This document shows positions 1 to 56,199 of a stretch of DNA of 63,447 nt, in pieces. This stretch comes from Candidatus Omnitrophota bacterium (lineage in GTDB: Bacteria > Omnitrophota > Gorgyraeia > Gygaellales > JAHJCI01). Each line of letters starts with the position of its first letter. The stretch's first letter is position 1. The stretch is from assembly GCA_029932935.1 (NCBI GenBank), contig JAOZPD010000001.1, positions 1 through 63,447 of the forward strand, written 5' to 3'. Below the pieces are notes generated by a model that saw nothing but the letters and a program-made list of their open reading frames with translations, was not told where the DNA came from and searched no databases. A program made the position numbers and the translations under genes.

Positions 1-1283
1 TTATTAATCAAAAAGTCCGCACCTTTATTTATAAAATTACGGGACAATTCTGGAAAAATATCCTCAAAACAAATAAGCACAGCAAAGGCCGTCTTTGTTC
101 CAAGAACATCCTGCCCTGATGCGATTGTATCCAACTCGGACCTCTCTGATAAACTACATCCTTCGTCTAATAAAAAGGTAGTGTACTCATCCCCTGCTGT
201 AAAATTTCCGATAGGTACGACTGTATCTAGAAAACCCAAGATATTTTTAAATGGTATATATTCCCCAAAAGGTACCAAATGTATTTTATTATAATATCTT
301 ACAATTCTACCAGATTTTGATATGAGAATCGCACTGTTATAATAATTGCCATTATTCAATCTAATCGCTCCTGTCAGAACATAAATTTTATTGTTAAATA
401 TGAATTCTTCTAATTTATCAATAGAGAAAATGTCTTCGCTATCTAAAATTACAGGTAAGGCTGCCTCTGGCCATATTATTAAATCTGGTTTTTCCTCTAT
501 AGCGCTCTGAGAGAGACGCAAATATTCATCTAAAATACCCCTTCTTGCCTCCTTTCTCCATTTAATCTCTTGAGGAATATTTCCCTGGATAACTGAAATC
601 TTAATTGATTTATTAGATTTAAGATTAGAGATTCTTATTATTCGGTGAAAACCGTATCCCAGGCATAAAAATAACAGAAAGATAGAAATGGAACAAGATA
701 CAATATCTAATGTATATCTCTTTCTTTTAATAGCGAATAATATACTATTAAAAACCGAATAGATAAACACATTTATGACCATAACCAAAAACGATATACC
801 CCAAACCCCAGTAATATCGGCAAGTTGTATTACTGGCAAGTTGAGATATTGCGAATAACCCAACAACACCCAGCCAAAACCGGTAAATATATGACTGCGT
901 GTATATTCAAACAATACCCAGAGTGAAGGAATGGATACTACTGACCAACGGGTATCGAGTAGTGCATATCGATTGATTACAAATCCAAATATACCAAAAT
1001 ATAAAGCCAGATATAAAATAAGCAAAATAAATCCAATAAGTGTAACATTAATTAACCAGTAGGTCGTACCAGCAAAAAAGATCAAACCACAAAAATAAGA
1101 TAATAAGAAACTATTCTTATTTTTTTGCTTTCTCAAACTGAAGAATAAAGGAATAAAGGCGACCCACGCTAAGAATTCTATATTTAAACAAGGATAAGAT
1201 ATAATTAGCAGAATTGCACTAATTAAAATAAGGACCAGATTAAAATAAATTTCTTTAGATTTAAAGATTAATAGGAGATTCAT
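1..1283 (-). CDS. lnt: apolipoprotein N-acyltransferase (Lnt); 3' end runs off the left window edge
   Basis: Absent from the ORF track because no stop lies in the window. My translation from ATG 1283..1281 gives MNLLLIFKSKEIYFNLVLILISAILLIISYPCLNIEFLAWVAFIPLFF..., a multi-TM N-terminus. The last in-window residues, ...GTKTAFAVLICFEDIFPELSRNFINKGADFLIN, look like the Lnt C-N hydrolase domain. The start overlaps the upstream stop (ATGA). Confidence 0.8.
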   Translation of the reverse strand, partial: MNLLLIFKSKEIYFNLVLILISAILLIISYPCLNIEFLAWVAFIPLFFSLRKQKNKNSFLLSYFCGLIFFAGTTYWLINVTLIGFILLILYLALYFGIFGFVINRYALLDTRWSVVSIPSLWVLFEYTRSHIFTGFGWVLLGYSQYLNLPVIQLADITGVWGISFLVMVINVFIYSVFNSILFAIKRKRYTLDIVSCSISIFLLFLCLGYGFHRIIRISNLKSNKSIKISVIQGNIPQEIKWRKEARRGILDEYLRLSQSAIEEKPDLIIWPEAALPVILDSEDIFSIDKLEEFIFNNKIYVLTGAIRLNNGNYYNSAILISKSGRIVRYYNKIHLVPFGEYIPFKNILGFLDTVVPIGNFTAGDEYTTFLLDEGCSLSERSELDTIASGQDVLGTKTAFAVLICFEDIFPELSRNFINKGADFLIN

Positions 1284-1501
1284 CGTCCGCAGGTAGAGCA
1301 ATTACGACTTGTACATGAGCTGCAGTTTAAATTTGAGGTAATATTACCCTGGGAGTCTTTACTAAAGTGGGCAAATACGGAGAATAAACGACTAATCTTG
1401 GAAGAATGGCAATCGGGGCAGATAATTCTTTCGTGATTATTCCTTATTAATAACTCGAATTTCGTATTACACTGATTACATCTATATTCGTATATCGGCA
1501 T
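1280..1501 (-). CDS. FmdB-family zinc-ribbon protein
   Basis: 73 aa. The MPIYEYRCNQCNTKFE start plus a second CPDC pair is the FmdB-type CxxC...CxxC ribbon. Cys-rich tail. Translationally coupled to lnt. Confidence 0.75.
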   Translation of the reverse strand: MPIYEYRCNQCNTKFELLIRNNHERIICPDCHSSKISRLFSVFAHFSKDSQGNITSNLNCSSCTSRNCSTCGR

Positions 1502-1503
1502 AT

Positions 1504-4458
1504 CTATCTACCATGACATTTCTTATATTTTATTGGTTTACCAGTCTTAGGATCAATTGCACCACAAGGACACGGATCATTCCTACCGACCTTAGGGTAT
1601 CTCTGCGTGGACTCCTTTCGATGATAACTAGGTTGTACAGCCTCAGGCTCATTGAATGCACTTACCAATCTGTCCTGTGATGTGTGAAAACGAGAGGCTT
1701 CCGGATGTAACATCTCTTGCTCAGTCAATCTAAATACGCCTTTAACCCTCTCTTGCGATACTGGCTGAATCTTAAAAAGCATCTCGATCGCATCTTCTTG
1801 AATAGAATTTATCATCTGGTCGAACATTATAAACGCCTCACGTTTATATTCGATTAAAGGATCGCGCTGACCAATTGCCCGCAAACCAATACCCTCTCTT
1901 AAATCATCCATCGCATAAAGGTGGTCCTTCCATTTACTATCAATAATTTGCAAGAGTATCATACGTTCAAAATGTCGCATTGTCCCTGAGCCGATTTTAT
2001 TCTCTTTTTGCCTGTAAGTTTCACTCAATATATTATAAATTTTCTCTCTAATTCGCTCATAAGATAGATTGGTTAAGTCCTGTTTATCTATTCTGAGTCC
2101 GAATTTTAAATATAAAGCATTAATCAATCCAAGAAGATCATATGATTCCTGTGTCGCCTGAGGCAGATAATTATCGCAAAGATTTATCACAACCTCTTCT
2201 AACATCTTTGTAATGCGCTCAGCGACTCTATCACCCTCAAGAATCTCTCTGCGTTGAGTATATATAATCTCACGTTGTTTATTCATTACATTATCATATT
2301 CAAGAAGCTGCTTTCTAATCTCGAAGTTATGCTCTTCTACGCGTCGCTGGGCAATCTCAATAGATTTGCTTACCCAAGGATGTTCAATTACCTGACCCTC
2401 CTCCAAACCTAAACGGTCCATTACTGCCATCAATCTATCCGATCCAAATAGACGCATTAAGTCGTCTTCTAAGGAAACATAGAATCTCGAAGATCCCGGG
2501 TCTCCCTGTCTACCTGAACGACCACGCAATTGATTATCGATTCTGCGTGCTTCATGTCGCTCAGTTCCCAAAACATGTAATCCTCCTAAACTCACTACCT
2601 TGCGATGCTCCTCTTCTGTTTCTCTCTTAAATCTATTTAATACCTCTCTGTATTCCTGTTCGAAATTATCCTGCTCTGTTAATTTTTTATTCCTAAGGAG
2701 ATTTTTAGCCATATACTCGGCGTTGCCACCCAGTAAGATATCTGTCCCTCTACCTGCCATATTTGTGGCGATAGTTACTGCTTTGTATCTTCCTGCTTGA
2801 GCTACAATCTGAGCCTCCTGCTCATGATATTTAGCATTGAGTACCTGATGAGGTATCCCTCGCCGTTTTAACAATTCAGAAAGATGCTCAGACTTCTCAA
2901 TAGAGATAGTTCCCACCAATACCGGACGACCCTGATTATACAGAGTAACTATCTCTTCAACTACAGCATTGAACTTTTCCCTCTCAGTTTTATAAACACA
3001 ATCAGGAAAATTTGTACGTATAAGGGGACGATTAGTAGGCACTACTACTACGTCCAGCTGATATATTGTCTTAAACTCCTGAACTTCAGAAAAGGCAGTC
3101 CCCGTCATACCGGCTAATTTTTCATACATCCGGAAGTAATTCTGGAAGGTAATTGTAGCTAAGGTCTGATTCTCACGCTCAATCTTCAATCCCTCCTTGG
3201 CCTCAACTGCCTGATGTAGTCCATCCGACCAACGTCTACCTGGCATAAGTCGCCCTGTAAATTCATCAACAATAACCACCCGTCCATCTTTAACTACATA
3301 ATGTACATCGCGTTTAAAATTTGGACCGTGTGCGCGTAATGCCTGGATAATATGATGCCTCCAATCCATCGTGTTAATATCGTGGAGATTATCCACGCCT
3401 AACATAGAACAAACTTTAGCTTCACCCTGTTCGGTTAAGTGAGCCGTATTAGCCTTCTCATCAATAATATAATCATAACCAGAGGATAAATCCTCACCTC
3501 TATATTTTGCAGCAACCTCATCACGCTCAAGTATAACTCTTCCTTTTAAACGGGGAACAATCTTATTAACAATATAATATTTCTCTGTTGATTCCTCAGC
3601 AGGCCCTGAAATAATCAACGGGGTACGTGCTTCATCAATAAGTATGGAATCGACCTCATCAACAATAGCATAATAGAATGGGCGCTGTACTAAATCTTCA
3701 TGTGAATATTTCATATTATCGCGCAGATAGTCAAATCCAAATTCATTATTTGTGCCATAGGTAATATCGCAGGCATAAGCCTCTTTCCTTGCTACATCAT
3801 CCATATCATGCTGAATAATCCCCACCGTTAATCCCAGAAAATTATAAATCGGCCCCATCCATTCTGCATCTCGTCTGGCAAGGTAATCATTCACTGTAAC
3901 TATATGAACACCTCGCTTTAAAAGTGCATTAAGATAAACTGCCAACGTCGCCACCAAGGTTTTGCCTTCACCGGTAGCCATCTCGGCAATCTTACCCTCG
4001 TGTAATAAAACACCACCAGCAATTTGGACATCAAAATGTCTCATCCCAACGGAGCGCTTAGCCGCCTCCCGCACAACAGCAAATGCCTCTATCAGAATAT
4101 CGCTGAATATTTTATTACGGGTAAATTTTAACTTTTCTTTTATCTTCTCTCGCTCTTGAGGCATCGCCACGGTAGAAAGCATTTCTTGCAGATCAATAAT
4201 CTCGCTTTGGTATTGGCGACTCTTGACATTGACATGTTCGATAAACTCTTCGGTCTTACTGCGTAGACCTGCATCGGAAAGACTAGCCATCTTGGGCTCA
4301 AGTCGATTTACCGCATCTACAATAGCGGCCAACTCTACCATTTTATTTATTGAAGAAACAGGCATCTCTGAATGTAAAACAATATTAACATTGGGATATT
4401 TACGTTTAATAATATTCTGTTTCCTTAACAATATTGAATTCTTAATAAAACTTAACAT
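1504..4458 (-). CDS. secA: preprotein translocase ATPase SecA
   Basis: 984 aa. Walker [18 protein letters not shown]-like [19 protein letters not shown], and the C-terminal zinc-binding tail CPCG...KKCHGR. The N-terminus is about 22 aa longer than E. coli SecA before the LEPxMxxLSD motif, so the start is uncertain. Confidence 0.96.
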
Positions 4459-4475
4459 CGTGAAGTTATAAAATT

Positions 4476-5595
4476 TTATTTTAATGTGTTTATTATTTTG
4501 ATTCTTTGATATTTCAAATACGCCTCCATGAAACCATCGAGTTCTCCATCTAACACAGCATTGACGTTACCAACTTCATATTCGGTGCGATGGTCTTTTA
4601 CTAAACTATAAGGATGCATTATATAAGAACGGATTTGACTACCCCATTCAATCTTCTGTTTTGTCCCACCAAATTGACGAGCAAATTTCTCTTCTTTCCT
4701 TTGCCTCTCTAATTGATAAAGACGTGCTTTTAAAATTTTTAAAGCAGTCTGTTTATTCTGATACTGAGAACGCTCGTTTTGGCATTGAACAACAATACCG
4801 CTGGGTAAATGTGTAATCCTCACTGCAGAATCGGACTTCTGCATATGCTGTCCACCCGGACCAGAAGAACGATATGTCTCAATGTGCAAGTCTTTGTCTT
4901 CAAGTATAATTTGTACATCGTTCTCGGTTTCGGGAATTACATCTACAGAAGCGAAAGATGTGTGTCTACGCTTATTTGCGTCGAAAGGAGAAATACGCAC
5001 CAAGCGATGAACGCCTTTCTCTGACTTAAGATATCCATAAGCGTATTCTCCTTCAATTAAAAAAGTAATATTCTTTATTCCCGCCTCCTCACCTACCAAT
5101 AAATCTGTGGATTTATATCTATATCCCTTCTTCTCTATCCAGCGACTATACATCCTGAAAAGCATCCCTGCCCAATCGCATGCCTCGGTTCCCCCAGCGC
5201 CAGCATTGATACTCATAATAACATTACAATGATCAAACTCTCCACTCAAAAGAGTTCTAAATTCCAACTTCTCCAAGTCCTGAAGGAGTTTATCTGTTGT
5301 TTTGTTTATATCTGCAATTAAATCCTTGTCCTTATCTTCCAGAATAGAGAAGAGCTCACGCAGTTCTTTATATTTAGAATGTAACTCTTCCCAGGGGCAA
5401 ACAGCTGCCTTAAGAGACTTAATCTGGTTAACCACCTGAACGGATTTTGCATTATCCTCCCAAAAATCAGGACTGGCCATCTGCTGAGACAACCGGGAGA
5501 TTTCCACCCTCTTATTATCTATGTCAAAGATAACCTCGCAGATAAATAAGTTTTTTTTCAATCTGATTCAATCGCTCCTTAATTCCTTCTAACAT
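4476..5595 (-). CDS. prfB: peptide chain release factor 2, requires programmed +1 frameshift
   Basis: The upstream frame starts at ATG 5595 (SD GAAAGGAG) and reads [23 protein letters not shown], then hits in-frame TGA (5526..5524). A +1 shift continues [12 protein letters not shown]... into the long ORF. SPF and GGQ motifs are present ([23 protein letters not shown]). The ORF-track start at 5561 is a TTG artefact. Confidence 0.93.
5523..5538 (-). other. prfB programmed +1 ribosomal frameshift site (CTT TGA C) with upstream internal SD-like GAGG
   Basis: The minus strand reads CGA GGT TAT CTT TGA C. This has the same architecture as the autoregulatory RF2 frameshift site in E. coli and most bacteria. 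Confidence 0.9.
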
Positions 5596-5615
5596 ATATA
5601 TCTCCTTTCATCTGA

Positions 5616-6689
5616 TTATGCTCCCCTTATACCTTTTAACATTAACGTGAATTCATCCTTATTGTCAGCTACGCTTGTCGCCACCTCTTCACTAACCTTA
5701 CCCTCCCTGACCAGCCTCAATAATGATTGATTAAATGAACACATACCGAAAATATCTCCCTCTTCAATAAAACGCGGAATCTCCCAAACCTTCCCTTCTC
5801 GAATAAGGCGGGAAAGCGTAGGTGTAAGTAGCATTATCTCATAGGCTGGTATACGACCGCCTGCATCCTTACGGGGCAAGAGCCTTAATGAGATAACCCC
5901 CTTCAGCAATAGAGATAACTCAGTCCTTATTTCCTCATGTTGATACAAAGGAAAAAAATTCATAATTCTTTCTATACTCTGGGCGGCATTCACTGTATGC
6001 AGAGTACTAAGCACCAACACCCCTGTCTCTGCAGCGGTAATAGCTGCTGACATTGTTTCATAATCGCGGATATTCGCTATATAAATAACATCTGGACTCT
6101 GTAAAGTAAACGCCCTTAAAGCTACTGGATAGGAAGCTACATCACGAAATAACTCCCGTTGATTTATAATTGAATTTTTATCTTGAAAGATAAACTCAAT
6201 CGGCTCTTCAATTGTTAGAATGTGTTTATGAGCATTAATATTAATATACTCAATCATGCTGGCAATAGTGGTTGATTTGCCGGAGCCCATACTCCCAGTA
6301 AGTAAAACCAGGCCACGGCTTTCCATAGCTAATTGTTTAAGCACAGAGGCAGGTAAATTAAGCTCTTCCATTGTCTGGGTAAGTGGAGCTATACTTCTTA
6401 TTACAATCGATGGCCAATTGCGTTGCCTAAATATACTCACTCGAAAGCGACGTTCTAACTCGGGTAAATATAAAGCGAAATCAACATCCAAATTCTTAAC
6501 AAAAAATTCCCTTAATTCTTCAGAAAGCAAATCCTTAAGAGCCTGATTAATATCATCGCTACTCACTATTTCGTTACCCACGCTAAGAACCTGAGAATTA
6601 ATACGCATCCGTACAGTACCACCGGCACGATAAAACATATCGGAGGCCTCTTTTTCAACCATTAATTTCAGATAATCCTTTATCTTCAT
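5616..6689 (-). CDS. PilT-family type IV pilus retraction-like ATPase
   Basis: 357 aa. N-terminal ASDMFYRAGGTVRMRI, Walker A GSMGSGKSTT, and Asp/His-box-like regions typical of PilT/PilU. No other pilus genes are nearby. Confidence 0.82.
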   Translation of the reverse strand: MKIKDYLKLMVEKEASDMFYRAGGTVRMRINSQVLSVGNEIVSSDDINQALKDLLSEELREFFVKNLDVDFALYLPELERRFRVSIFRQRNWPSIVIRSIAPLTQTMEELNLPASVLKQLAMESRGLVLLTGSMGSGKSTTIASMIEYININAHKHILTIEEPIEFIFQDKNSIINQRELFRDVASYPVALRAFTLQSPDVIYIANIRDYETMSAAITAAETGVLVLSTLHTVNAAQSIERIMNFFPLYQHEEIRTELSLLLKGVISLRLLPRKDAGGRIPAYEIMLLTPTLSRLIREGKVWEIPRFIEEGDIFGMCSFNQSLLRLVREGKVSEEVATSVADNKDEFTLMLKGIRGA

Positions 6690-6782
6690 TTTCTAACCTT
6701 TCTTTAAAATTGTTTCAACCATAATAATATACTCCATAACCTTAAATCTTACCCTTTTACCAGAACATAACAATTCAAAATA

Positions 6783-32598: not shown

Positions 32599-32661
32599 AA
32601 TATACCATCAATCCACCATCCTGTCAATAAGATTGACAATCGACGAATGGGATGCTATATT
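32599..32661. promoter_or_regulatory. back-to-back divergent consensus promoters for tRNA-Ala/leuS (-) and nfeD (+)
   Basis: Plus strand: TTGACA 32633-32638, N17, TATATT 32656-32661. Minus strand: TTGACA (rc of 32622-32627), N17, TATATT (rc of 32599-32604). The two -35 boxes are the arms of the palindrome TGTCAAT-aag-ATTGACA (32622-32638). Confidence 0.5.
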
Positions 32662-47359: not shown

Positions 47360-47428
47360 TTATCTACGGCTTCTCTTCTTCTTGGCAGTTCTCTTCTTTG
47401 TTTTCTTCTTGGCCTTTTTCTTAACCAT
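47360..47428 (-). CDS. candidate 22-aa Lys/Arg-rich micro-protein
   Basis: My translation: MVKKKAKKKTKKRTAKKKRSRR*. SD GGAGGTG (rc of 47435-47441) lies 6 nt before the ATG, and an intrinsic terminator follows about 54 nt downstream. It falls below the ORF-track length cutoff. Confidence 0.45.
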   Translation of the reverse strand: MVKKKAKKKTKKRTAKKKRSRR

Positions 47429-47607
47429 CCAGTTCACCTCCTTTCTCTTGGTTAATAAATACCGGATATTAAAAATACTTATCTTTATGGGATATAGACC
47501 TCTTTCTAAAGGTCACCAATTTATCTCTGTGTATTTGTTTTTTCTCTCTCAATAATCTCGATATATTCTTCTGTCTCCTTGTAATTCTTTCTCTGGGCAT
47601 TTAGTAT

Positions 47608-48902: not shown

Positions 48903-50558
48903 ATGGATAAAAGACTTATTGCCTTATCAGAAGAATATTTCCAATATCTGGCTTATGCATATCCCGTAATGAGTCTGTCTGACGAATTCTATTTCATGCC
49001 CCGTTCCAACAAAGCAATATATCATCTGGATTATCTGGACTGTCTAGACAAAGAGAAGATAAAACAGGATGTTTCTTGTATAAAAACACTCAAGATTCGC
49101 CTAGAGAATATATATACAGAGAATATGGAGTTAGAAACACAGATAGACTGGCAGCTTCTCAGACAAAGCATATCAGCATATCTATGGGAATTCGAACGGA
49201 TAAAAATATGGCGTCTAGACCCGAATATCTATCTTAAGATCATTATCCTAGGAATGGACCAAATCTTAAATAAGGTTTGTATGATTAAAGATAACATCCA
49301 AGAGGAATTTGCCTATCGAATACAACAGATCCCACGATTACTAAACGAGGCCAAAGTAAATCTCACAGACATACCTCTTTTCTATAGGGATACGGCTATA
49401 AGTATAATTAAATCAATCATCGATTACCTCAGGGGTCAATCCTATCTAATCACAATAAAAAGATTGGATTCTTCTACATTCGCAAGATTAATAAAAGAGT
49501 CCATCCATTCTCTATATGACTTTAAAAGCTTCCTGGAGAAACGCCCGGTTAAAGATACATTTATTAAAGAAAGGGAGCTATTGCGGGATTTGTTAATTGA
49601 TGTCTTTTCGTATAAACGCGACCTTGCAGAAATCTTCGAGATAGCCTCGGAAGAATATCAAAATACCCTGGATGAATTAAAAAGAATGGCCAATGCAATT
49701 CAGCCGCCAAAAACATGGCAGGAGGTATTAATCGGCTATAAATTAAAAGTAAAGACTAAAAAAGACCTACTGAACCTGTATCGCAAGCAGATTTTCAATC
49801 TAAAGGATTTCCTTATAAGATACGAATTGATTACTATCCCGGAAGTCCAAGATATTACGGTTGAGGAAACCCCCAGTTACCTAAAACCAATCAGAGCCTC
49901 CGCCTCATATAGTTGCCCTATAAGCAAAGACAGAAGAGAAACAGCATTTTTTTATGTAGCTATTGACTCTAATAAAAATAAAAAAATACAAGAAATATGG
50001 GAGAATATCCATCAAGAGTACATATTTATTACTGCGCATGAAACCTATCCCGGACATCACTTGCTAGATTCGGTAAGACGCGGCATTCGGAATCCCATTC
50101 GCCAACAGATCGAATCCCCATTCTTTTATGAAGGATGGGCTTCCTATGCAGAAAGGATAATCAGGGAATCTGGATATATAAATAATACTGTACAAAAGAT
50201 GATAGGTTTAAGAAGAGAGGCATGGAGGGCAATCAGGGCAAAATTAGATATAGGAATAAGATTAAATAAGATAAGTCTCTCTGGAGCAGCGGAGGAATTG
50301 CATCGGTTGGGATATGCTCCCCGTAGAATCAAGATTATGCTTAAGCATTACCTGCTTACATATGGATACCAATTGTGTTATACTATTGGTAAATTTGAGA
50401 TTGAAAGATTAGCAGAAAGATTTATTTCCCAACTGGGAATAAGGAATTTCCATAACTGCTTAATAGAGGCAGGAGAGATTCCTTTTGAGCTAATTCAAAA
50501 AAGGATGGAGAGATTATGCGAGGGGAATTCTCAGGATATCATTCAGAGTGGAATCTAG
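48903..50558 (+). CDS. DUF885-like putative metallohydrolase
   Basis: 551 aa. The ITAHETYPGHHLLDS motif matches the HExxPGHH signature I associate with DUF885. No signal peptide. Confidence 0.65.
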   Translation: MDKRLIALSEEYFQYLAYAYPVMSLSDEFYFMPRSNKAIYHLDYLDCLDKEKIKQDVSCIKTLKIRLENIYTENMELETQIDWQLLRQSISAYLWEFERIKIWRLDPNIYLKIIILGMDQILNKVCMIKDNIQEEFAYRIQQIPRLLNEAKVNLTDIPLFYRDTAISIIKSIIDYLRGQSYLITIKRLDSSTFARLIKESIHSLYDFKSFLEKRPVKDTFIKERELLRDLLIDVFSYKRDLAEIFEIASEEYQNTLDELKRMANAIQPPKTWQEVLIGYKLKVKTKKDLLNLYRKQIFNLKDFLIRYELITIPEVQDITVEETPSYLKPIRASASYSCPISKDRRETAFFYVAIDSNKNKKIQEIWENIHQEYIFITAHETYPGHHLLDSVRRGIRNPIRQQIESPFFYEGWASYAERIIRESGYINNTVQKMIGLRREAWRAIRAKLDIGIRLNKISLSGAAEELHRLGYAPRRIKIMLKHYLLTYGYQLCYTIGKFEIERLAERFISQLGIRNFHNCLIEAGEIPFELIQKRMERLCEGNSQDIIQSGI

Positions 50559-51904
50559 GCAGCCCTGGCGGATGGGATTATCAACGGATGGCTCAGGAGA
50601 TAGGAAGATATTCCTGGCAGATATTAAAAGATAAAGCCGACATTAATATAGAACTGGATTTCGAGCACCCTATTCTCAATCCCGTACCTGCATTTGCTAA
50701 TCTGCTCATTGAAGCGCACAGGAGTAATTTTGGAAGAGAGAAACCCTCTATAGCATTAGTGGCTGAACAGGAGACACTTGATAAGGTAGGCGAGAATATC
50801 CACTTTGTGCAATATTTGAATAGCCTACCGGACATCTCCGCATATCTAATCAGCCCAGATAAACTGGAATTAAGAAATGATCAGATATTTGCGGACAATA
50901 ATAAGATTACATTGTTATTCTTAGACTTTAATAATAATGTAATCGTGAGATTAAAAAAGAGATATAACCTCAAACCACTAATCAAGGCAATAAAAATGGG
51001 TATGGTGATAAACCCTCGCGGCATGGAACCAATCGGAGCTAAGGGTGTATTTGAAGCAATCACATCAGAGTATAAAAACATAGTAAACGAGACCACGCTG
51101 AGAAGGACCCCCTGGACAAGACAATTTTTCCATCGCTCTACCTTGGGTCCAGATGGAGAATCAATTCCAGATTTGATTCAATGGGCAAGAGATAACTGGG
51201 AGAACATAATTTTAAAACCGGTACATGGATACTCTGGAAAAGGCATTATCATTGGTCATAAAGAATCCAACAGAGATAAGTGCATACAAGATGCTTTAAA
51301 TAGTGGGAACTATATTATCCAAAGACTTATCCCGCTTACTCTCTGGTCAGAAGAATTTCCTTACATCGATAAAAAAGACAAATCCCTCTTCCTAAAATCC
51401 TGGCAGACAGACTTTCGCTGTTTCATAACCAATAAGGGGTTAATTGGATTTGTTACTCGATTTGGGGGCATCCCTACCAATGTAGGCTCAGGTGGAGGGG
51501 TACAGAGTACAGCAATCCTACGTTCAAATATAACAGCAAAAGAGGCGATTAAGAGAATAAATGAAGCTATCATGAGTTTAGGATTTGATTTTATTGCTCA
51601 ATTGCAAGAACAGATAGACAAGAAATCTACCAAGATGGGGAATGTTTATCTATTGGGTCCTATTATGTCTACCTTAAGACCCAGGATAATCACACCTGGA
51701 CATGTTCTAAGTTTACAGGCCTATGCCAAAAACCTATGGGATGATGCGCTGAAATTAGAGTCACTGTGGAGAGAAGGGAAGTTAACACAATATGTCTGTA
51801 TAAGTAAAGAGGAAGAGGAAATCGCCCGTCTTAATCCCTGGAACGGACAGGCGGCTCTTATAGCCTCTGATGGATTATTTAATTTTGTAGATGACTATGA
51901 TTAA
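50516..51904 (+). CDS. ATP-grasp amidoligase of permuted (CP-type-2 / eukaryotic-GSH-synthetase-like) topology
   Basis: 462 aa. ILKPVHGYSGKGIIIG (phosphate-binding loop), YIIQRLIPL (hinge) and GFVTRFGGIPTNVGSGGGVQSTAIL (cf. the GGLTRV...N.S.GGG...T motif of circularly permuted ATP-grasp proteins). SD GGAGAG precedes ATG 50516. It overlaps the upstream gene by 43 nt. Confidence 0.5.
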   Translation: MRGEFSGYHSEWNLGSPGGWDYQRMAQEIGRYSWQILKDKADINIELDFEHPILNPVPAFANLLIEAHRSNFGREKPSIALVAEQETLDKVGENIHFVQYLNSLPDISAYLISPDKLELRNDQIFADNNKITLLFLDFNNNVIVRLKKRYNLKPLIKAIKMGMVINPRGMEPIGAKGVFEAITSEYKNIVNETTLRRTPWTRQFFHRSTLGPDGESIPDLIQWARDNWENIILKPVHGYSGKGIIIGHKESNRDKCIQDALNSGNYIIQRLIPLTLWSEEFPYIDKKDKSLFLKSWQTDFRCFITNKGLIGFVTRFGGIPTNVGSGGGVQSTAILRSNITAKEAIKRINEAIMSLGFDFIAQLQEQIDKKSTKMGNVYLLGPIMSTLRPRIITPGHVLSLQAYAKNLWDDALKLESLWREGKLTQYVCISKEEEEIARLNPWNGQAALIASDGLFNFVDDYD

Positions 51905-52667
51905 AGTAAAAAGGGATTGGTGGAAGAATTTCTTTAACCATATATATTTAATCACCGATGCCCGCAGCGTAAAGAACAAATCCCTTACCTGTCGGGAGGT
52001 AGATTTAATAGAGAGATCTCTAAATTTAAAAAGGAGCGATCGTATACTTGATTTATTTGGTGGACAAGGAAGACATTCGATAGAATTGGCCAGACGCGGA
52101 TACCGTGACTTAAGCGTACTTGATTACTCTGAGTATCTAATTAATCTGGGAAGGCGTCTAAGCAGTAAGGAAAACCTAAAAATCAATTTTTATCGTGCAG
52201 ACGCGCGTACTACCGGTTTAAAAAGTAACGACTATTCTGTTATTATTGTAATGGCTAACTCCTTTGGTTACTTTCCCAGAGAGAAAGACAATCTTAAGGT
52301 ACTACAAGAGATTCATCGTCTCCTTAAGAAGAGGGGGAGATTGCTTCTGGATATAGCTAATCCTATTTATGTAAAAAATAATCTTGGTTTAATCTCATGG
52401 CATAGAATAAGAAATATCCTTATCCTGCGCAGCAGAGAGATCAGAAATAATCTGGTCAAGACGCGGGAGATTGTAATCTCCCAACAGGATGGATTAATTA
52501 GAGACGAATGCTACTGCGAATATCTCTATGAACAGGATAAAATCAGGCAATTACTCCGAAAGATAGGATTTAAAAATATAAAAATAAATAACAAACTGTC
52601 CCTGCATAACAAAAAAGGAGATTATGGCCTTCTTAGTTCAAGGATGATTATTACAGCTAAGAAATAA
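51891..52667 (+). CDS. class I SAM-dependent methyltransferase
   Basis: 258 aa. Motif I ILDLFGGQGRHS, an acidic post-I residue (VLDYS), and VIIVMANSFGYF. It overlaps the upstream gene by 14 nt. Confidence 0.8.
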   Translation: MTMIKVKRDWWKNFFNHIYLITDARSVKNKSLTCREVDLIERSLNLKRSDRILDLFGGQGRHSIELARRGYRDLSVLDYSEYLINLGRRLSSKENLKINFYRADARTTGLKSNDYSVIIVMANSFGYFPREKDNLKVLQEIHRLLKKRGRLLLDIANPIYVKNNLGLISWHRIRNILILRSREIRNNLVKTREIVISQQDGLIRDECYCEYLYEQDKIRQLLRKIGFKNIKINNKLSLHNKKGDYGLLSSRMIITAKK

Positions 52668-52694
52668 ATGTGTTTATTTAGAGATAAAAAATTC

Positions 52695-52723
52695 TTGACA
52701 TATTATTTATAATAGAATATTAT
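52695..52723 (+). promoter_or_regulatory. near-consensus sigma70 promoter (TTGACA-N17-TATTAT) for the 27-aa ORF
   Basis: TTGACA at 52695-52700, a 17-nt spacer, and TATTAT at 52718-52723, followed by SD AAGGGAGG (52731-52738). Confidence 0.55.
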
Positions 52724-52747
52724 TCTTTTGAAGGGAGGTTATAAGGA

Positions 52748-52831
52748 ATGAAGGCAAAAAAGATAAATAAAACCACCAAGTCTAAAAAGAAACTTTCCCG
52801 TTATTGCCGTTCCGGTAGAGTACTCTGGTAA
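52748..52831 (+). CDS. candidate 27-aa Lys-rich peptide with C-terminal YCRSGRVLW
   Basis: My translation: MKAKKINKTTKSKKKLSRYCRSGRVLW*. It has its own promoter and a strong SD 9 nt upstream. Its stop lies 10 nt from the convergent radical SAM stop. Confidence 0.5.
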   Translation: MKAKKINKTTKSKKKLSRYCRSGRVLW

Positions 52832-52840
52832 TATTATATT

Positions 52841-54364
52841 TTAATATAGCTGATTGCCCCTTTTACCCACCGGGTCAAATCCAAAGAGCTCTTCTAAACG
52901 GTGGGGTATTCTTTCCGACAGAATAGCTAAACTGGCAATAGCCAGTTCCAACTTCTCCCGAAACAACTCACAGCTTCTTTCATATGGTAAGGCCGGGTCT
53001 CCCCGGAAATAATAATTCATATTTAAGCAAGAACCGGTTGAACGGCATAGACTAAACAATAAACATTCTCTGCAATTCTCACGCTGTTTCCTCACGCTTT
53101 CCAGAAAACTGTTATATTTATCTATATCGAGTCCGTCTCGTACATTGCCAAAATTGAACCTCTTTATTCCCAAAAAAGATGTGCAGGGATAGATATTCCC
53201 ATCAGCAGAGACCGCTAACTGTCCTCTTGCAGCCGGACAGCCACCCGCAAGCTCATGGTTATAATATAGTCGTTGCATCAATTTAAAGAATCTATTAAAA
53301 AACGTCCTTCTATAATCCAGGAATCCCTTTGAGGATTCATCGATATAAAGTAAGGCCAACCTTTCGTATTCTTTAAATAATCTCTTGTATTGCTGCTCAG
53401 TATGAAAAAAAACAGACTCTCTCTTAGGGCTAATTCTATGACAAGCATCCTCGCTCTCAAAAAGCTCAATCCTCTCAAAGCCTAAATTCCTTAAGTTATT
53501 GTATAACTCTACCATATCTGTATAAAAGGGTGTAACGGTACTGCGTCCCACAAGCCTCTTGATTATTCTCTCCGGCATATTTCTTAAGTTAGACAATATC
53601 GTATCAAAGCTTCCATTCCCATCTTTAAACGGCCGATTGTTATCCTGGATACATCTCGGTCCATCGATGCTGACAGCTATCTGGACACCCTTATTAATCA
53701 ACTCCTCAGCTAACGAGGGCGTCAGAAGCGTACCGTTTGTTGCCAAGAGAAAATGAAAGCTTACATTCCAGCTAGATTCATTTCCCCTGCAATAATCGAC
53801 TGTTTTAGAAAGTGTCTGGAGATTCATCAAGGGTTCTCCGCCGTAGAAATCCACAACCAGATTTCTATCTTCTCCACAAAGATTAACCAACATATCCACT
53901 GCCATCCTGGCTATCTCAAAGGACATATCATCATCTACTGTGCTTTTAGAAACAACGAATTGATTATCCTGGAACTGCTCTGCAGAATATCTGCCCTGGT
54001 CATTCCAGCAGTAAACACAATTTAAATTGCACTTAGAGGTCAAGTTAAGCGTCAGATCAGTAATATTAGCAATAATGCCCTCCTCTTTATCCAGATTATC
54101 CTTCCTTACTAAAGGGAACAGGCTTATTATGCTATCAGGGATATTCTGAGATTTTGCTAATTTTATTGCCTCTTCAGGTGTAGGATGCTTATCTAAATTT
54201 ATAATCTCTGTATTCCATCCTTGCAAGGCTAAATATGTATCATCGGATATCTCAAAGAAATCCCCCGTACAGGTCGAGATTGCAAAACAACGATTCAGTT
54301 TTTTAAAAATGTATGCTGGTAACAATCTATCCTTCTGCCTTAAAGGCTGAGTAGCATGATTCAT
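52841..54364 (-). CDS. radical SAM/SPASM-domain enzyme with ~105-aa N-terminal extension (peptide-maturase-like)
   Basis: 507 aa. CNLNCVYC (CxxxCxxC), FYGGEPLM, and SPASM-type clusters GGCPAARGQLAVSADGNIYPC and CRECLLFSLCRSTGSC. The N-terminal extension has the same length class as RRE domains in sactisynthase-type enzymes. Confidence 0.85.
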   Translation of the reverse strand: MNHATQPLRQKDRLLPAYIFKKLNRCFAISTCTGDFFEISDDTYLALQGWNTEIINLDKHPTPEEAIKLAKSQNIPDSIISLFPLVRKDNLDKEEGIIANITDLTLNLTSKCNLNCVYCWNDQGRYSAEQFQDNQFVVSKSTVDDDMSFEIARMAVDMLVNLCGEDRNLVVDFYGGEPLMNLQTLSKTVDYCRGNESSWNVSFHFLLATNGTLLTPSLAEELINKGVQIAVSIDGPRCIQDNNRPFKDGNGSFDTILSNLRNMPERIIKRLVGRSTVTPFYTDMVELYNNLRNLGFERIELFESEDACHRISPKRESVFFHTEQQYKRLFKEYERLALLYIDESSKGFLDYRRTFFNRFFKLMQRLYYNHELAGGCPAARGQLAVSADGNIYPCTSFLGIKRFNFGNVRDGLDIDKYNSFLESVRKQRENCRECLLFSLCRSTGSCLNMNYYFRGDPALPYERSCELFREKLELAIASLAILSERIPHRLEELFGFDPVGKRGNQLY

Positions 54365-54419
54365 AATCTTCCCTTTCTATTAATTTATATCAATCTACTC
54401 ATAAGAACTAATCTTTACC

Positions 54420-54815
54420 CTAACGATTCAATGCCATCTTTATAAAATCCTCTATGGCCTGCCTGTCTGCCTCGGATATCTTTGCAAAATAAATTCCTAA
54501 ACGATGTTCATTGGCCTCTAATAATATATTATTCCTTACTTCACCTACTATCTCCATGGAACGAATACGATTGCTCTTCTCAGCATAGTGATTAATTAAA
54601 GTGAATCTTATCAAGAGAAGGGTTGAAACAGGAATATCGCAATTTGTCAAAATAGCCATCCCCACTCCGCTTAAATCTAACATCAGTGCGTTGACATCCT
54701 TATTACCTATCCGTACGCGTATCTCTATGGGTTTATCAACTTTATAAATAACTACAAACTCAGCCCTTACTCGCGGAGACCTTCTTCTCTCTGGCCCACT
54801 ATATATATCAACCAT
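54420..54815 (-). CDS. PilZ-domain c-di-GMP receptor
   Basis: 131 aa. RRRSPR (RxxxR) and DLSGVG (DxSxxG). Strong SD AGGAGG. Confidence 0.8.
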   Translation of the reverse strand: MVDIYSGPERRRSPRVRAEFVVIYKVDKPIEIRVRIGNKDVNALMLDLSGVGMAILTNCDIPVSTLLLIRFTLINHYAEKSNRIRSMEIVGEVRNNILLEANEHRLGIYFAKISEADRQAIEDFIKMALNR

Positions 54816-54845
54816 AACCTATCCTCCTATTTATTACTTAGTGAT

Positions 54846-54874
54846 ATTTTAATATTTTGTTTGATGCTTTTCAA
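54846..54874 (-). promoter_or_regulatory. putative promoter (TTGAAA-N17-TAAAAT) for the PilZ-radical SAM operon
   Basis: Minus strand: TTGAAA (54874..54869), N17, TAAAAT (54851..54846). A 10-bp palindrome GGATATATCC (54884-54893) lies just upstream. Confidence 0.45.
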
Positions 54875-54913
54875 GACAAATAAGGATATATCCCTAAATG
54901 CAACCGAGGAATC

Positions 54914-55933
54914 TCAAGGGCATGTAACGCCAGATAATTCCTCTATTGCCTTTTTGATTCTCAACATTCTCTCGGGAGATGACGGATGGGTAGAGAGATA
55001 ATTTCTAATCATCGAACGAGGAATCTCGATGGCAAATCTTTCCTGAAACGAGGTACATGCACAAGGATTATAACCGGCGTAATAAACAAACCGTACACTA
55101 AAATAATCCGCCTCTCTCTCTAAATCGCGAGAGTAATGTGCCTTGAATACCTCGGCAGTACGCATTACCAAATCACCTGTCCCGGGAGCAGCCTCATCAG
55201 CAATTATCCCTAAGGGGATACCAATAAGAAGGGACAGGAGTGAGGTTATCTGTGATTTAGACACATGAGCACGAACAAAATGCGCTAACTCATGTGCCAA
55301 TACCGCTGCAATCTCATCATCCGATCTTACAAAATTCATCAATCCATAGGTAACGTAGATTGCATTGTTACTTGCGGCTGCGTTGACCTCCTGCACATCA
55401 ATCATGGCGATTGGTACATTTATAGGTATCGAACCGGCACTTAAAATTATATCTCTGCGTAGATTACCCCTTAGAACCTGCAGCTTAACTGGCTCTCCTA
55501 CATTCAGATTATGAAGACAACGATTAAAATCACCTACAGAGTGAACGGCTACATTATTAATCGAGACCAACACATCTCCCGGCACCAATCCTGCCTTTTT
55601 AGCGGGTGAACCGTCAATAACCACTACTAATACCAACCCTCTCTCTACAGTTAACCTGTATAACCTCTTAAGATATTTATCGATAGGACTTACAAATATA
55701 CCTATATAAGGCTGGGGTTTGTCTGCAATCTTAATCTCCTCCTGGGGAATATTACTAATTAAACGATAGCCGATATTACTGACCTTATCCAACTGTTTTA
55801 TACGGAACTCCAGAGACCTCACCATTAACTCTTCGCTTGCCTCCCGAATCTCCTGCTTGCTTACCGACGGACCAGTAATAGTAGCGCACCCATTGGTAGA
55901 TAACAATGCTATAAACAATAGAATAAATCTCAT
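54914..55933 (-). CDS. M48-family zinc metalloprotease lipoprotein with PDZ domain
   Basis: Start at ATG 55933 (SD AGAGGGG) gives MRFILLFIALLSTNGCA with a lipobox. PDZ (GLVPGDVLVSINNVAV) and HELAHFVRAH (HExxH). The ORF-track start is TTG. Confidence 0.85.
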   Translation of the reverse strand: MRFILLFIALLSTNGCATITGPSVSKQEIREASEELMVRSLEFRIKQLDKVSNIGYRLISNIPQEEIKIADKPQPYIGIFVSPIDKYLKRLYRLTVERGLVLVVVIDGSPAKKAGLVPGDVLVSINNVAVHSVGDFNRCLHNLNVGEPVKLQVLRGNLRRDIILSAGSIPINVPIAMIDVQEVNAAASNNAIYVTYGLMNFVRSDDEIAAVLAHELAHFVRAHVSKSQITSLLSLLIGIPLGIIADEAAPGTGDLVMRTAEVFKAHYSRDLEREADYFSVRFVYYAGYNPCACTSFQERFAIEIPRSMIRNYLSTHPSSPERMLRIKKAIEELSGVTCP

Positions 55934-56199
55934 ATATCCCCTCTTCTCTGAGAATAGCAAAGCACAATTGCCAGTAATATCGAAGCAGGTAATATCACTA
56001 TAAAATCAAACTCATTTTTAATCTTTAAACTAAAAATAGATAAGGTAAGGAATACGATATACCAGAGGATTTTCCTAAAGATATGCAGGCGGAACCCATC
56101 GCAGAAACATAATCCCATATATAAGGCAAATAGACTTAACGTCAACCACTGCCAGAAGATTGTATGGCTCATAATTTTTCTCTTACCTGGCACAGCCAC
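55930..56199 (-). CDS. small membrane protein of unknown function
   Basis: 89 aa or fewer, with three hydrophobic segments. Its stop overlaps the M48 gene start (ATGA). Confidence 0.4.
   Translation of the reverse strand: MAVPGKRKIMSHTIFWQWLTLSLFALYMGLCFCDGFRLHIFRKILWYIVFLTLSIFSLKIKNEFDFIVILPASILLAIVLCYSQRRGDI

Follow-up and report, generated by a model that had tools for sequence, protein, structure and literature searches.

A conserved lysine-rich short peptide gene and an adjacent CteB-like radical SAM/SPASM enzyme gene as a putative peptide maturation module in Omnitrophota and Elusimicrobiota

Short peptides together with radical SAM/SPASM enzymes have been a productive source of new chemistry, including thioethers, cyclophanes, PQQ and mycofactocin. 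The gene pair described here belongs to the radical SAM/SPASM peptide-maturase kind and lies in a 63,447-nucleotide stretch of DNA from a Candidatus Omnitrophota bacterium, the whole of which is called the window below. Among known systems, SCIFF (CteA/CteB of Clostridium thermocellum; ScfA/ScfB, TIGR03974) comes closest. As in SCIFF, a short peptide gene is found directly beside the gene of an enzyme with RRE, radical SAM and SPASM domains. Both systems are two-gene units without a dedicated protease or exporter, and in both the C-terminal region of the peptide is highly conserved rather than hypervariable. CteB was also the best sequence, profile and fold match of the window enzyme. On the other hand, the 27-residue peptide of the window has a single Cys (one subfamily has two), whereas the SCIFF precursor has ~45 residues with six Cys. 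In contrast to SCIFF, the peptide carries a presumed polylysine leader and a core that ends in a C-terminal Trp, and its enzyme reached 211 bits against the TIGR03974 cut-off of 425. Moreover, the module was found in Omnitrophota and Elusimicrobiota, whereas SCIFF is found in Clostridia.

The named family with the highest score was that of the PapB / freyrasin-type ranthipeptide maturases (NF047865), which gave 229 bits and for which the cut-off of 340 was not reached. The Cys-x-x-x-acceptor spacing of PapB could match the C-R-S-G-R of the peptide. PapB substrates contain repeated C-x3-D motifs with acidic acceptors; the peptide of the window differs from them in its single motif, in the Arg at +4 and in the absence of an acidic core residue. 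Anaerobic sulfatase maturases (anSME, TIGR03942) share with this system a SPASM radical SAM enzyme and a Cys in a C-x-x-x-R context. However, an RRE is present here and anSME's extra Aux I-ligating Cys is absent, the enzyme scored 76 bits against 349 for TIGR03942 and 72 bits against 441 for NF010321, and no sulfatases were detected in the genome. As in the streptide KxxxW systems (StrA/StrB, SuiA/SuiB), a small Lys/Trp peptide is located beside an RRE-SPASM radical SAM enzyme, but the core G-R-V-L-W has no Lys within four residues of the Trp, and the streptide family was absent from the 25 best NCBIfam matches of the enzyme. PqqA/PqqE and MftA/MftC likewise combine a tiny peptide, a few strictly conserved C-terminal residues and a SPASM enzyme, and MftA is modified at its very C-terminus. 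Unlike in those two systems, no PqqB/C/D- or MftB/D/E-like partner and no other neighbour was conserved around the module, and neither the PQQ nor the mycofactocin maturase was among the 25 best NCBIfam matches. The pair is unnamed in Pfam and NCBIfam, no paper on it was found, and it comes from uncultured phyla with small genomes.

The peptide gene occupies 52748..52831 on the + strand (84 nt including the stop codon TAA at 52829-52831) and encodes 27 aa, translated as MKAKKINKTTKSKKKLSRYCRSGRVLW. The Shine-Dalgarno (SD) sequence AAGGGAGG (52731-52738, +) lies 9 nt 5′ of the ATG at 52748. Further upstream, a predicted sigma-70-like promoter consists of TTGACA (52695-52700), a 17-nt spacer and TATTAT (52718-52723), also on the + strand. 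Residues 1-15 (52748..52792, +) are variable and Lys-rich and are presumed to be the leader; a conserved I-N-K motif (52763-52771, +) is situated inside them. Residues 16-27 (52793..52828, +) form the invariant C-terminal core, LSRYCRSGRVLW, and the stop codon follows directly. The promoter, SD, ATG and 84-nt ORF named in the original prediction were all present in the sequence at their given positions. The promoter pair at 52695-52723 scored 11/12 and was the top match in 51500-55500 in a promoter scan; taken alone, this match does not exceed chance, with 7 sigma-70 matches of at least 11/12 in the 63-kb window and ~2.3 expected from first-order Markov simulations. Stronger support was provided by the homologous loci, where SD, ATG and promoter pairs recur. 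A GGAGG-type SD was found 5-10 nt 5′ of the ATG in nearly all of the 74 distinct copies of the peptide gene. When 110 nt 5′ of the ATG were searched, a hexamer pair of at least 10/12 was detected in 35 of these 74 copies (six perfect), starting mostly ~45-60 nt 5′ of the ATG. Among the seven window matches of at least 11/12, those at 32627/32633 form a back-to-back pair on opposite strands.

The peptide and enzyme genes are convergent in the window, with 9 nt (52832-52840) between their stop codons, so that a common transcript is not possible. No terminator-like site was found in this 9-nt gap on either strand, and read-through from the predicted strong peptide promoter should produce transcripts antisense to the 3′ part of that gene. 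A hairpin with a U-tract was clear between peptide and enzyme in some of the co-directional loci (e.g. L012, L021, L023 and L098), and in 42 of 77 loci no terminator between the two genes passed the filter.

The ORF was found in ~90 loci, carried by Omnitrophota MAGs and a few Elusimicrobiota MAGs. The first search, which covered 60 related genomes, detected the peptide in two families of the window's order. A pattern scan with one genome per species gave 33 genome loci, and a metagenome scan gave 54 additional ones. Both pattern scans presupposed part of the core motif, but each constrained a different half. The record titles of the 33 genome loci were mostly Candidatus Omnitrophota, with a few Elusimicrobiota; other titles included 'Planctomycetales', 'delta proteobacterium' (several) and 'Paceibacterota' (one), which may be mislabels. 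All ortholog loci shared the 12 C-terminal residues of the window's core, with a stop codon immediately after them. Among the 34 distinct nucleotide versions of the core, all degenerate codons varied synonymously, including CGN/AGR and CTN/TTR switches, and not one residue was changed. Judged from its codons, the core is under purifying selection at the protein level and is not merely conserved as nucleotides, and the unchanged core together with the fixed stop indicates that the ORF is a genuine coding gene. The whole peptide ranges from 26 to ~47 aa, and its N-terminal part differs in length and sequence between loci. The spacing between a hydrophobic-Asn-[K/R] motif and the Cys is conserved: of 59 distinct tails, 53 have the motif 13 residues N-terminal to the Cys, and in the other tails the distance is 15-17 residues. 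Variant subfamilies retain [Y/F]-C-R-[S/C]-G-R-V-L-W with the stop directly after it. Cys20, Arg21, Arg24 and Trp27, the last residue, never vary, and the core is always at the C-terminus. No Pfam or NCBIfam model matched the 27-aa peptide, and its database copies are unnamed or called 'hypothetical protein'. In the literature, no paper with 'YCRSGR' was found and the matches to 'GRVLW' were unrelated; the Protein Atlas gave no usable match, and the viral collection searched yielded no relative of the module.

The association between the two genes was consistent in both directions of search. An enzyme ortholog (56-75% identity) adjoined the peptide in 31 of the 33 genome loci; in 27 of them it followed the peptide gene directly on the same strand, and in 4 the two genes were convergent, as in the window. 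The metagenome loci showed the same adjacency in 53 of 54 cases, the remaining one lying at a contig end, which brings the total to 84/87 loci in two gene arrangements and two phyla. A search that started from the enzyme (at least 60% identity) carried no bias towards the peptide. Of 401 phylum genomes, 13 (~3%) had an ortholog, the window's own and 12 others, and the peptide was present in 13/13. Moreover, enzymes at 39-50% identity carried co-varying peptides ending in FCRCGRVLW or RFCRSGRVLW: the upstream peptides ended in AFCRCGRVLW for enzymes at 39-40% identity, and in LSRFCRSGRVLW for those at 42-50%. ORF clustering over 34 loci showed no other conserved neighbour and only the radical SAM gene recurred, indicating a two-gene module. 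The linkage was kept through a changed gene arrangement and across two phyla, which is strong evidence for functional coupling. The original prediction had proposed a genuine, independent small gene tied to the neighbouring radical SAM/SPASM gene. Both proposals were borne out, the one by homologs whose reading frame is conserved with synonymous variation and the other by adjacency in both arrangements.

Two orphan copies of the peptide had no adjacent radical SAM gene (L017, 6001-6081; L027, 6001-6081). The gene after the orphan peptide in L017 belongs to the sulfatase / alkaline-phosphatase superfamily and is without the C/S-x-P/A-x-R motif. In L010 (G054:C36), a second peptide copy (1471-1578) with an intact core was found beside a radical SAM remnant, whose pieces (1711-2157 and 2202-2648) lack the catalytic barrel (approximately residues 163-351); a complete peptide-enzyme pair is present elsewhere in that genome (L005). 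One contig (G085:C19, ~280-6780; L016 / L052 / L058) carried two modules ~5 kb apart. In one, a SRYCRSGRVLW peptide accompanies an enzyme of 60% identity, and in the other, an AAFCRCGRVLW peptide accompanies an enzyme of 40% identity. This pair of modules looks like an old duplication in which peptide and enzyme co-diverged.

The enzyme gene (52841..54364, - strand, convergent with the peptide gene) encodes a putative radical SAM/SPASM peptide maturase of 507 aa, with Pfam matches to Radical_SAM, Fer4_12 and SPASM. An N-terminal RRE-type peptide-binding domain was predicted at residues ~15-95 (54080..54322, -) from the AlphaFold model and from the profile alignment to CteB. The CX3CX2C radical SAM cluster motif (C112, C116 and C119; 54008..54031, -) was invariant in 26 family members and aligned to the CteB motif. 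The SPASM domain (52970..53239, -) contains seven invariant Cys (C376, C394, C431, C434, C440, C446 and C465), all of which align with CteB Cys in the pattern for two auxiliary clusters; in the alignment, the family had no counterpart of the additional Aux I Cys of anSME. The AlphaFold model had a mean pLDDT of 84, and residues 17-92 were modelled as three strands followed by helices, of the RRE type, with pLDDT >90. The top Foldseek match was CteB (5WHY, 5WGG), with a target TM of 0.81-0.84 over ~470-480 columns; anSME was second, SuiB was far weaker (TM ~0.5) and PqqE was weak. The family profile matched CteB residues 6-450 with an E value of 2e-78, compared with ~1e-21 for anSME. The alignment includes CteB residues 6-100, which contain the CteB RRE (layout: PMC6231123). 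By sequence and model, the enzyme has a CteB-like architecture of RRE, CX3CX2C motif and seven-Cys SPASM domain.

The curated cut-off was not reached for any named NCBIfam family, and the reaction is therefore not readable from homology. The top six NCBIfam matches were the PapB, nif11, SCIFF, QhpD, 'not_ScfB' and CcpM maturases (229-165 bits), all of them maturases of Cys-containing peptides. An additional invariant Cys, C192, is specific to the family, and C308 is not conserved in paralogs. In 50% clustering, the enzymes formed a tight family with a single representative at 55% and a further two at 38-40%, beyond which came generic SPASM enzymes at ~30%; a cluster look-up of the relatives returned 'uncharacterized protein' only. 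For a relative of 33% identity (P0027), no orthologs were found in the 401 phylum genomes.

We consider it likely that the product of the ORF is a ribosomally synthesised precursor peptide and that the enzyme at 52841-54364 is its dedicated modifier, the two genes forming a self-contained module. Very probably, the enzyme acts on this peptide and converts it into a modified peptide of a kind not yet described. In the proposed mechanism, the peptide would be produced from its own predicted strong promoter and SD, and the RRE domain would bind the Lys-rich leader; the probable binding site is the hydrophobic-Asn-Lys motif, 13 residues N-terminal to the Cys. This spacing is suited by the distance of ~33 Å between the RRE and the active site of CteB (PMC6231123). 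The invariant core, [Y/F]-C-R-x-G-R-V-L-W with its carboxyl end free, would then go into the active site. Aux I of CteB has an open site that accepts a substrate Cys (PMC6231123), and by analogy with CteB, PapB and QhpD the single Cys of the core may bind the first auxiliary Fe-S cluster (Aux I). The 5′-deoxyadenosyl radical would take a hydrogen from another core residue, and one intramolecular thioether ring would result. This chemistry is the weakest step of the proposal, and by analogy we would put the formation of one thioether ring from the single Cys at roughly an even chance. A first guess for the acceptor would be the invariant Arg24, at +4 from the Cys, in keeping with the Cys-x3-acceptor spacing of PapB substrates. 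To our knowledge, thioethers to Arg or to other core residues have not been described for this clade, the known acceptors being Asp, Glu, Thr and Asn. Because the module has no protease or exporter, the product would probably be the whole modified polycationic peptide, either intracellular or non-specifically released. The two orphan copies, the convergent genes in the window, the enzyme score below all cut-offs and the family-specific C192 are points against this explanation.

The original prediction had named three chemical handles in the C-terminal decapeptide. The single Cys is invariant and is the likeliest of the three. The Tyr was suggested as a modified residue, but Phe substitutes for it in variant subfamilies, indicating that the hydroxyl is not required. 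A Lys-Trp link as in streptide is unlikely, given the distance of 12 residues between the Trp and the closest Lys and the poor structural match to SuiB. A radical SAM modification other than a thioether has a minor though appreciable chance. One set of such reactions by the same pair comprises a Trp-Arg C-C cyclophane (WprB/RrrB type), C-terminal oxidation (MftC type) and epimerisation; this we regard as unlikely. It would agree with the invariance of Arg21, Arg24 and Trp27, with a core that is always C-terminal and with an enzyme below every family cut-off, and there is a precedent in radical SAM enzymes that join Trp-C5 to Arg-Cγ or Arg-Cδ to Tyr-C3 (PMC11851443). However, the cyclophane families scored far lower (YhhB 89 and FxsB 65 bits, compared with 229 for PapB), the fold match to SuiB was poor (TM ~0.5), and a Trp-Arg link alone leaves the invariance of the Cys unexplained. 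Conversion of the Cys in C-R-S-G-R to formylglycine, as by anSME, would make the peptide an aldehyde-bearing product or a decoy, and had been hinted at by the likening of this motif to the C-x-(P/A)-x-R of sulfatase maturase substrates. The C-x-x-x-R spacing, the invariant Arg and the hydrophobic residue at +7 do resemble the sulfatase signature, anSME was the second-best fold match, and sulfatase-family genes adjoin the module in a few loci. On the other hand, the anSME models gave 72-76 bits against cut-offs of 349-441, CteB was a far better match, and the residue at +2 is Ser or Cys and not Pro or Ala. Furthermore, anSME has no RRE and its auxiliary clusters, including Aux I, are fully ligated (PMC6231123), whereas the family here shows the CteB pattern. 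No sulfatase or FGE was found in the window's genome (88.5% complete), where PF00884 had no match, and the 'sulfatase' neighbours in the few loci are without the C/S-x-P/A-x-R motif. A sulfatase link was rejected on these last grounds, the analogy to sulfatase maturases is not supported, and formylglycine formation is very unlikely.

The remaining explanations concern the peptide itself. An unmodified basic micro-protein that binds ribosomes or nucleic acid, with the radical SAM gene as an incidental neighbour, would account for the extremely basic composition, which is like that of small ribosomal proteins, and for a gene that has its own predicted promoter and is convergent, not co-transcribed, with the enzyme gene in the window. 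This reading is highly improbable in view of the adjacency in 84/87 loci of both arrangements and phyla and in the 13/13 enzyme-first genomes, and of the co-variation of the peptide with the enzyme subfamily; a presence in only ~3% of the sampled phylum genomes is also unlike that of a core ribosomal component. The earlier suggestion of a micro-protein unrelated to its neighbours is contradicted by the conserved linkage, as far as 'unrelated' is concerned; the modified peptide may still bind nucleic acid. The very short length, the low-complexity Lys codons and the lack of any database annotation might suggest that the ORF arose by chance or is a non-coding RNA with conservation at the nucleotide level only. 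However, this is refuted by the codon pattern, with an unchanged 12-residue core over 34 nucleotide versions and a fixed stop, and the SD and ATG are conserved as well, leaving a practically negligible probability.

For the preferred reading, that of a precursor peptide with its dedicated maturase, the pattern of conservation bears on the possible role of the product. Conservation is inverted compared with typical RiPPs, in that the 12-residue core with one Cys and a terminal Trp is invariant and the polylysine leader is variable. This suggests a fixed molecular target or a cofactor-like role and not an arms-race antibiotic. Neither a polybasic leader nor the combination of an invariant core and a variable leader is typical of antimicrobial RiPPs, which is a further point against the preferred reading. 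We tentatively suggest that the product may be an intracellular, sequence-invariant modified peptide and not a secreted RiPP of the antibiotic type; it might be cofactor-like or bind RNA, ribosomes or membranes, and its cross-link could be of an undescribed type, e.g. a Cys-to-Arg thioether. Compatible with this suggestion are a core that is 100% conserved in both phyla against enzyme identities as low as 56%, the polycationic remainder of the peptide and a module without protease or exporter. With two genes and a 27-residue substrate, the module is directly testable, and a new type of cross-link or a conserved class of peptides could emerge from it.

Several neighbours were considered as partners of the module and rejected. 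A larger RiPP island was considered with the DUF885 / ATP-grasp / methyltransferase operon, whose genes accompany the module only in the window's family (L011, L013), and PilZ was a neighbour only in the window's genome. The M48 metallopeptidase encoded at 54914-55960 (-), upstream of the enzyme gene and on the same strand, contains an inserted PDZ domain. This M48-PDZ gene directly precedes the enzyme in L011 and L013, and it did not co-occur with the module outside the window's family. As a processing protease it was rejected, since generic M48-domain homologs were found in module-bearing and module-free genomes alike. PDZ domains bind C-termini, and the PDZ domain of this protein could bind the V-L-W carboxyl end. 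A Lys/Arg-rich 25-aa ORF at 47360-47437 (-), MNWMVKKKAKKKTKKRTAKKKRSRR, is not a paralog of the peptide, having no Cys, Trp or core motif. The gene at 50516-51904 (+) encodes 462 aa without a Pfam match and with faint glutathione-synthase / ATP-grasp-like NCBIfam matches; within the window's family alone (L013), it is conserved alongside the DUF885 and methyltransferase genes. In 9 of 34 loci (L012, L015, L019, L020, L023, L028, L040, L041 and L042), the module is flanked by arrays of paralogous genes of ~500 aa, 21 genes in total. The one array gene that was scanned has B12-binding and radical SAM domains, and PMT_2-type glycosyltransferase genes accompany several of these arrays.
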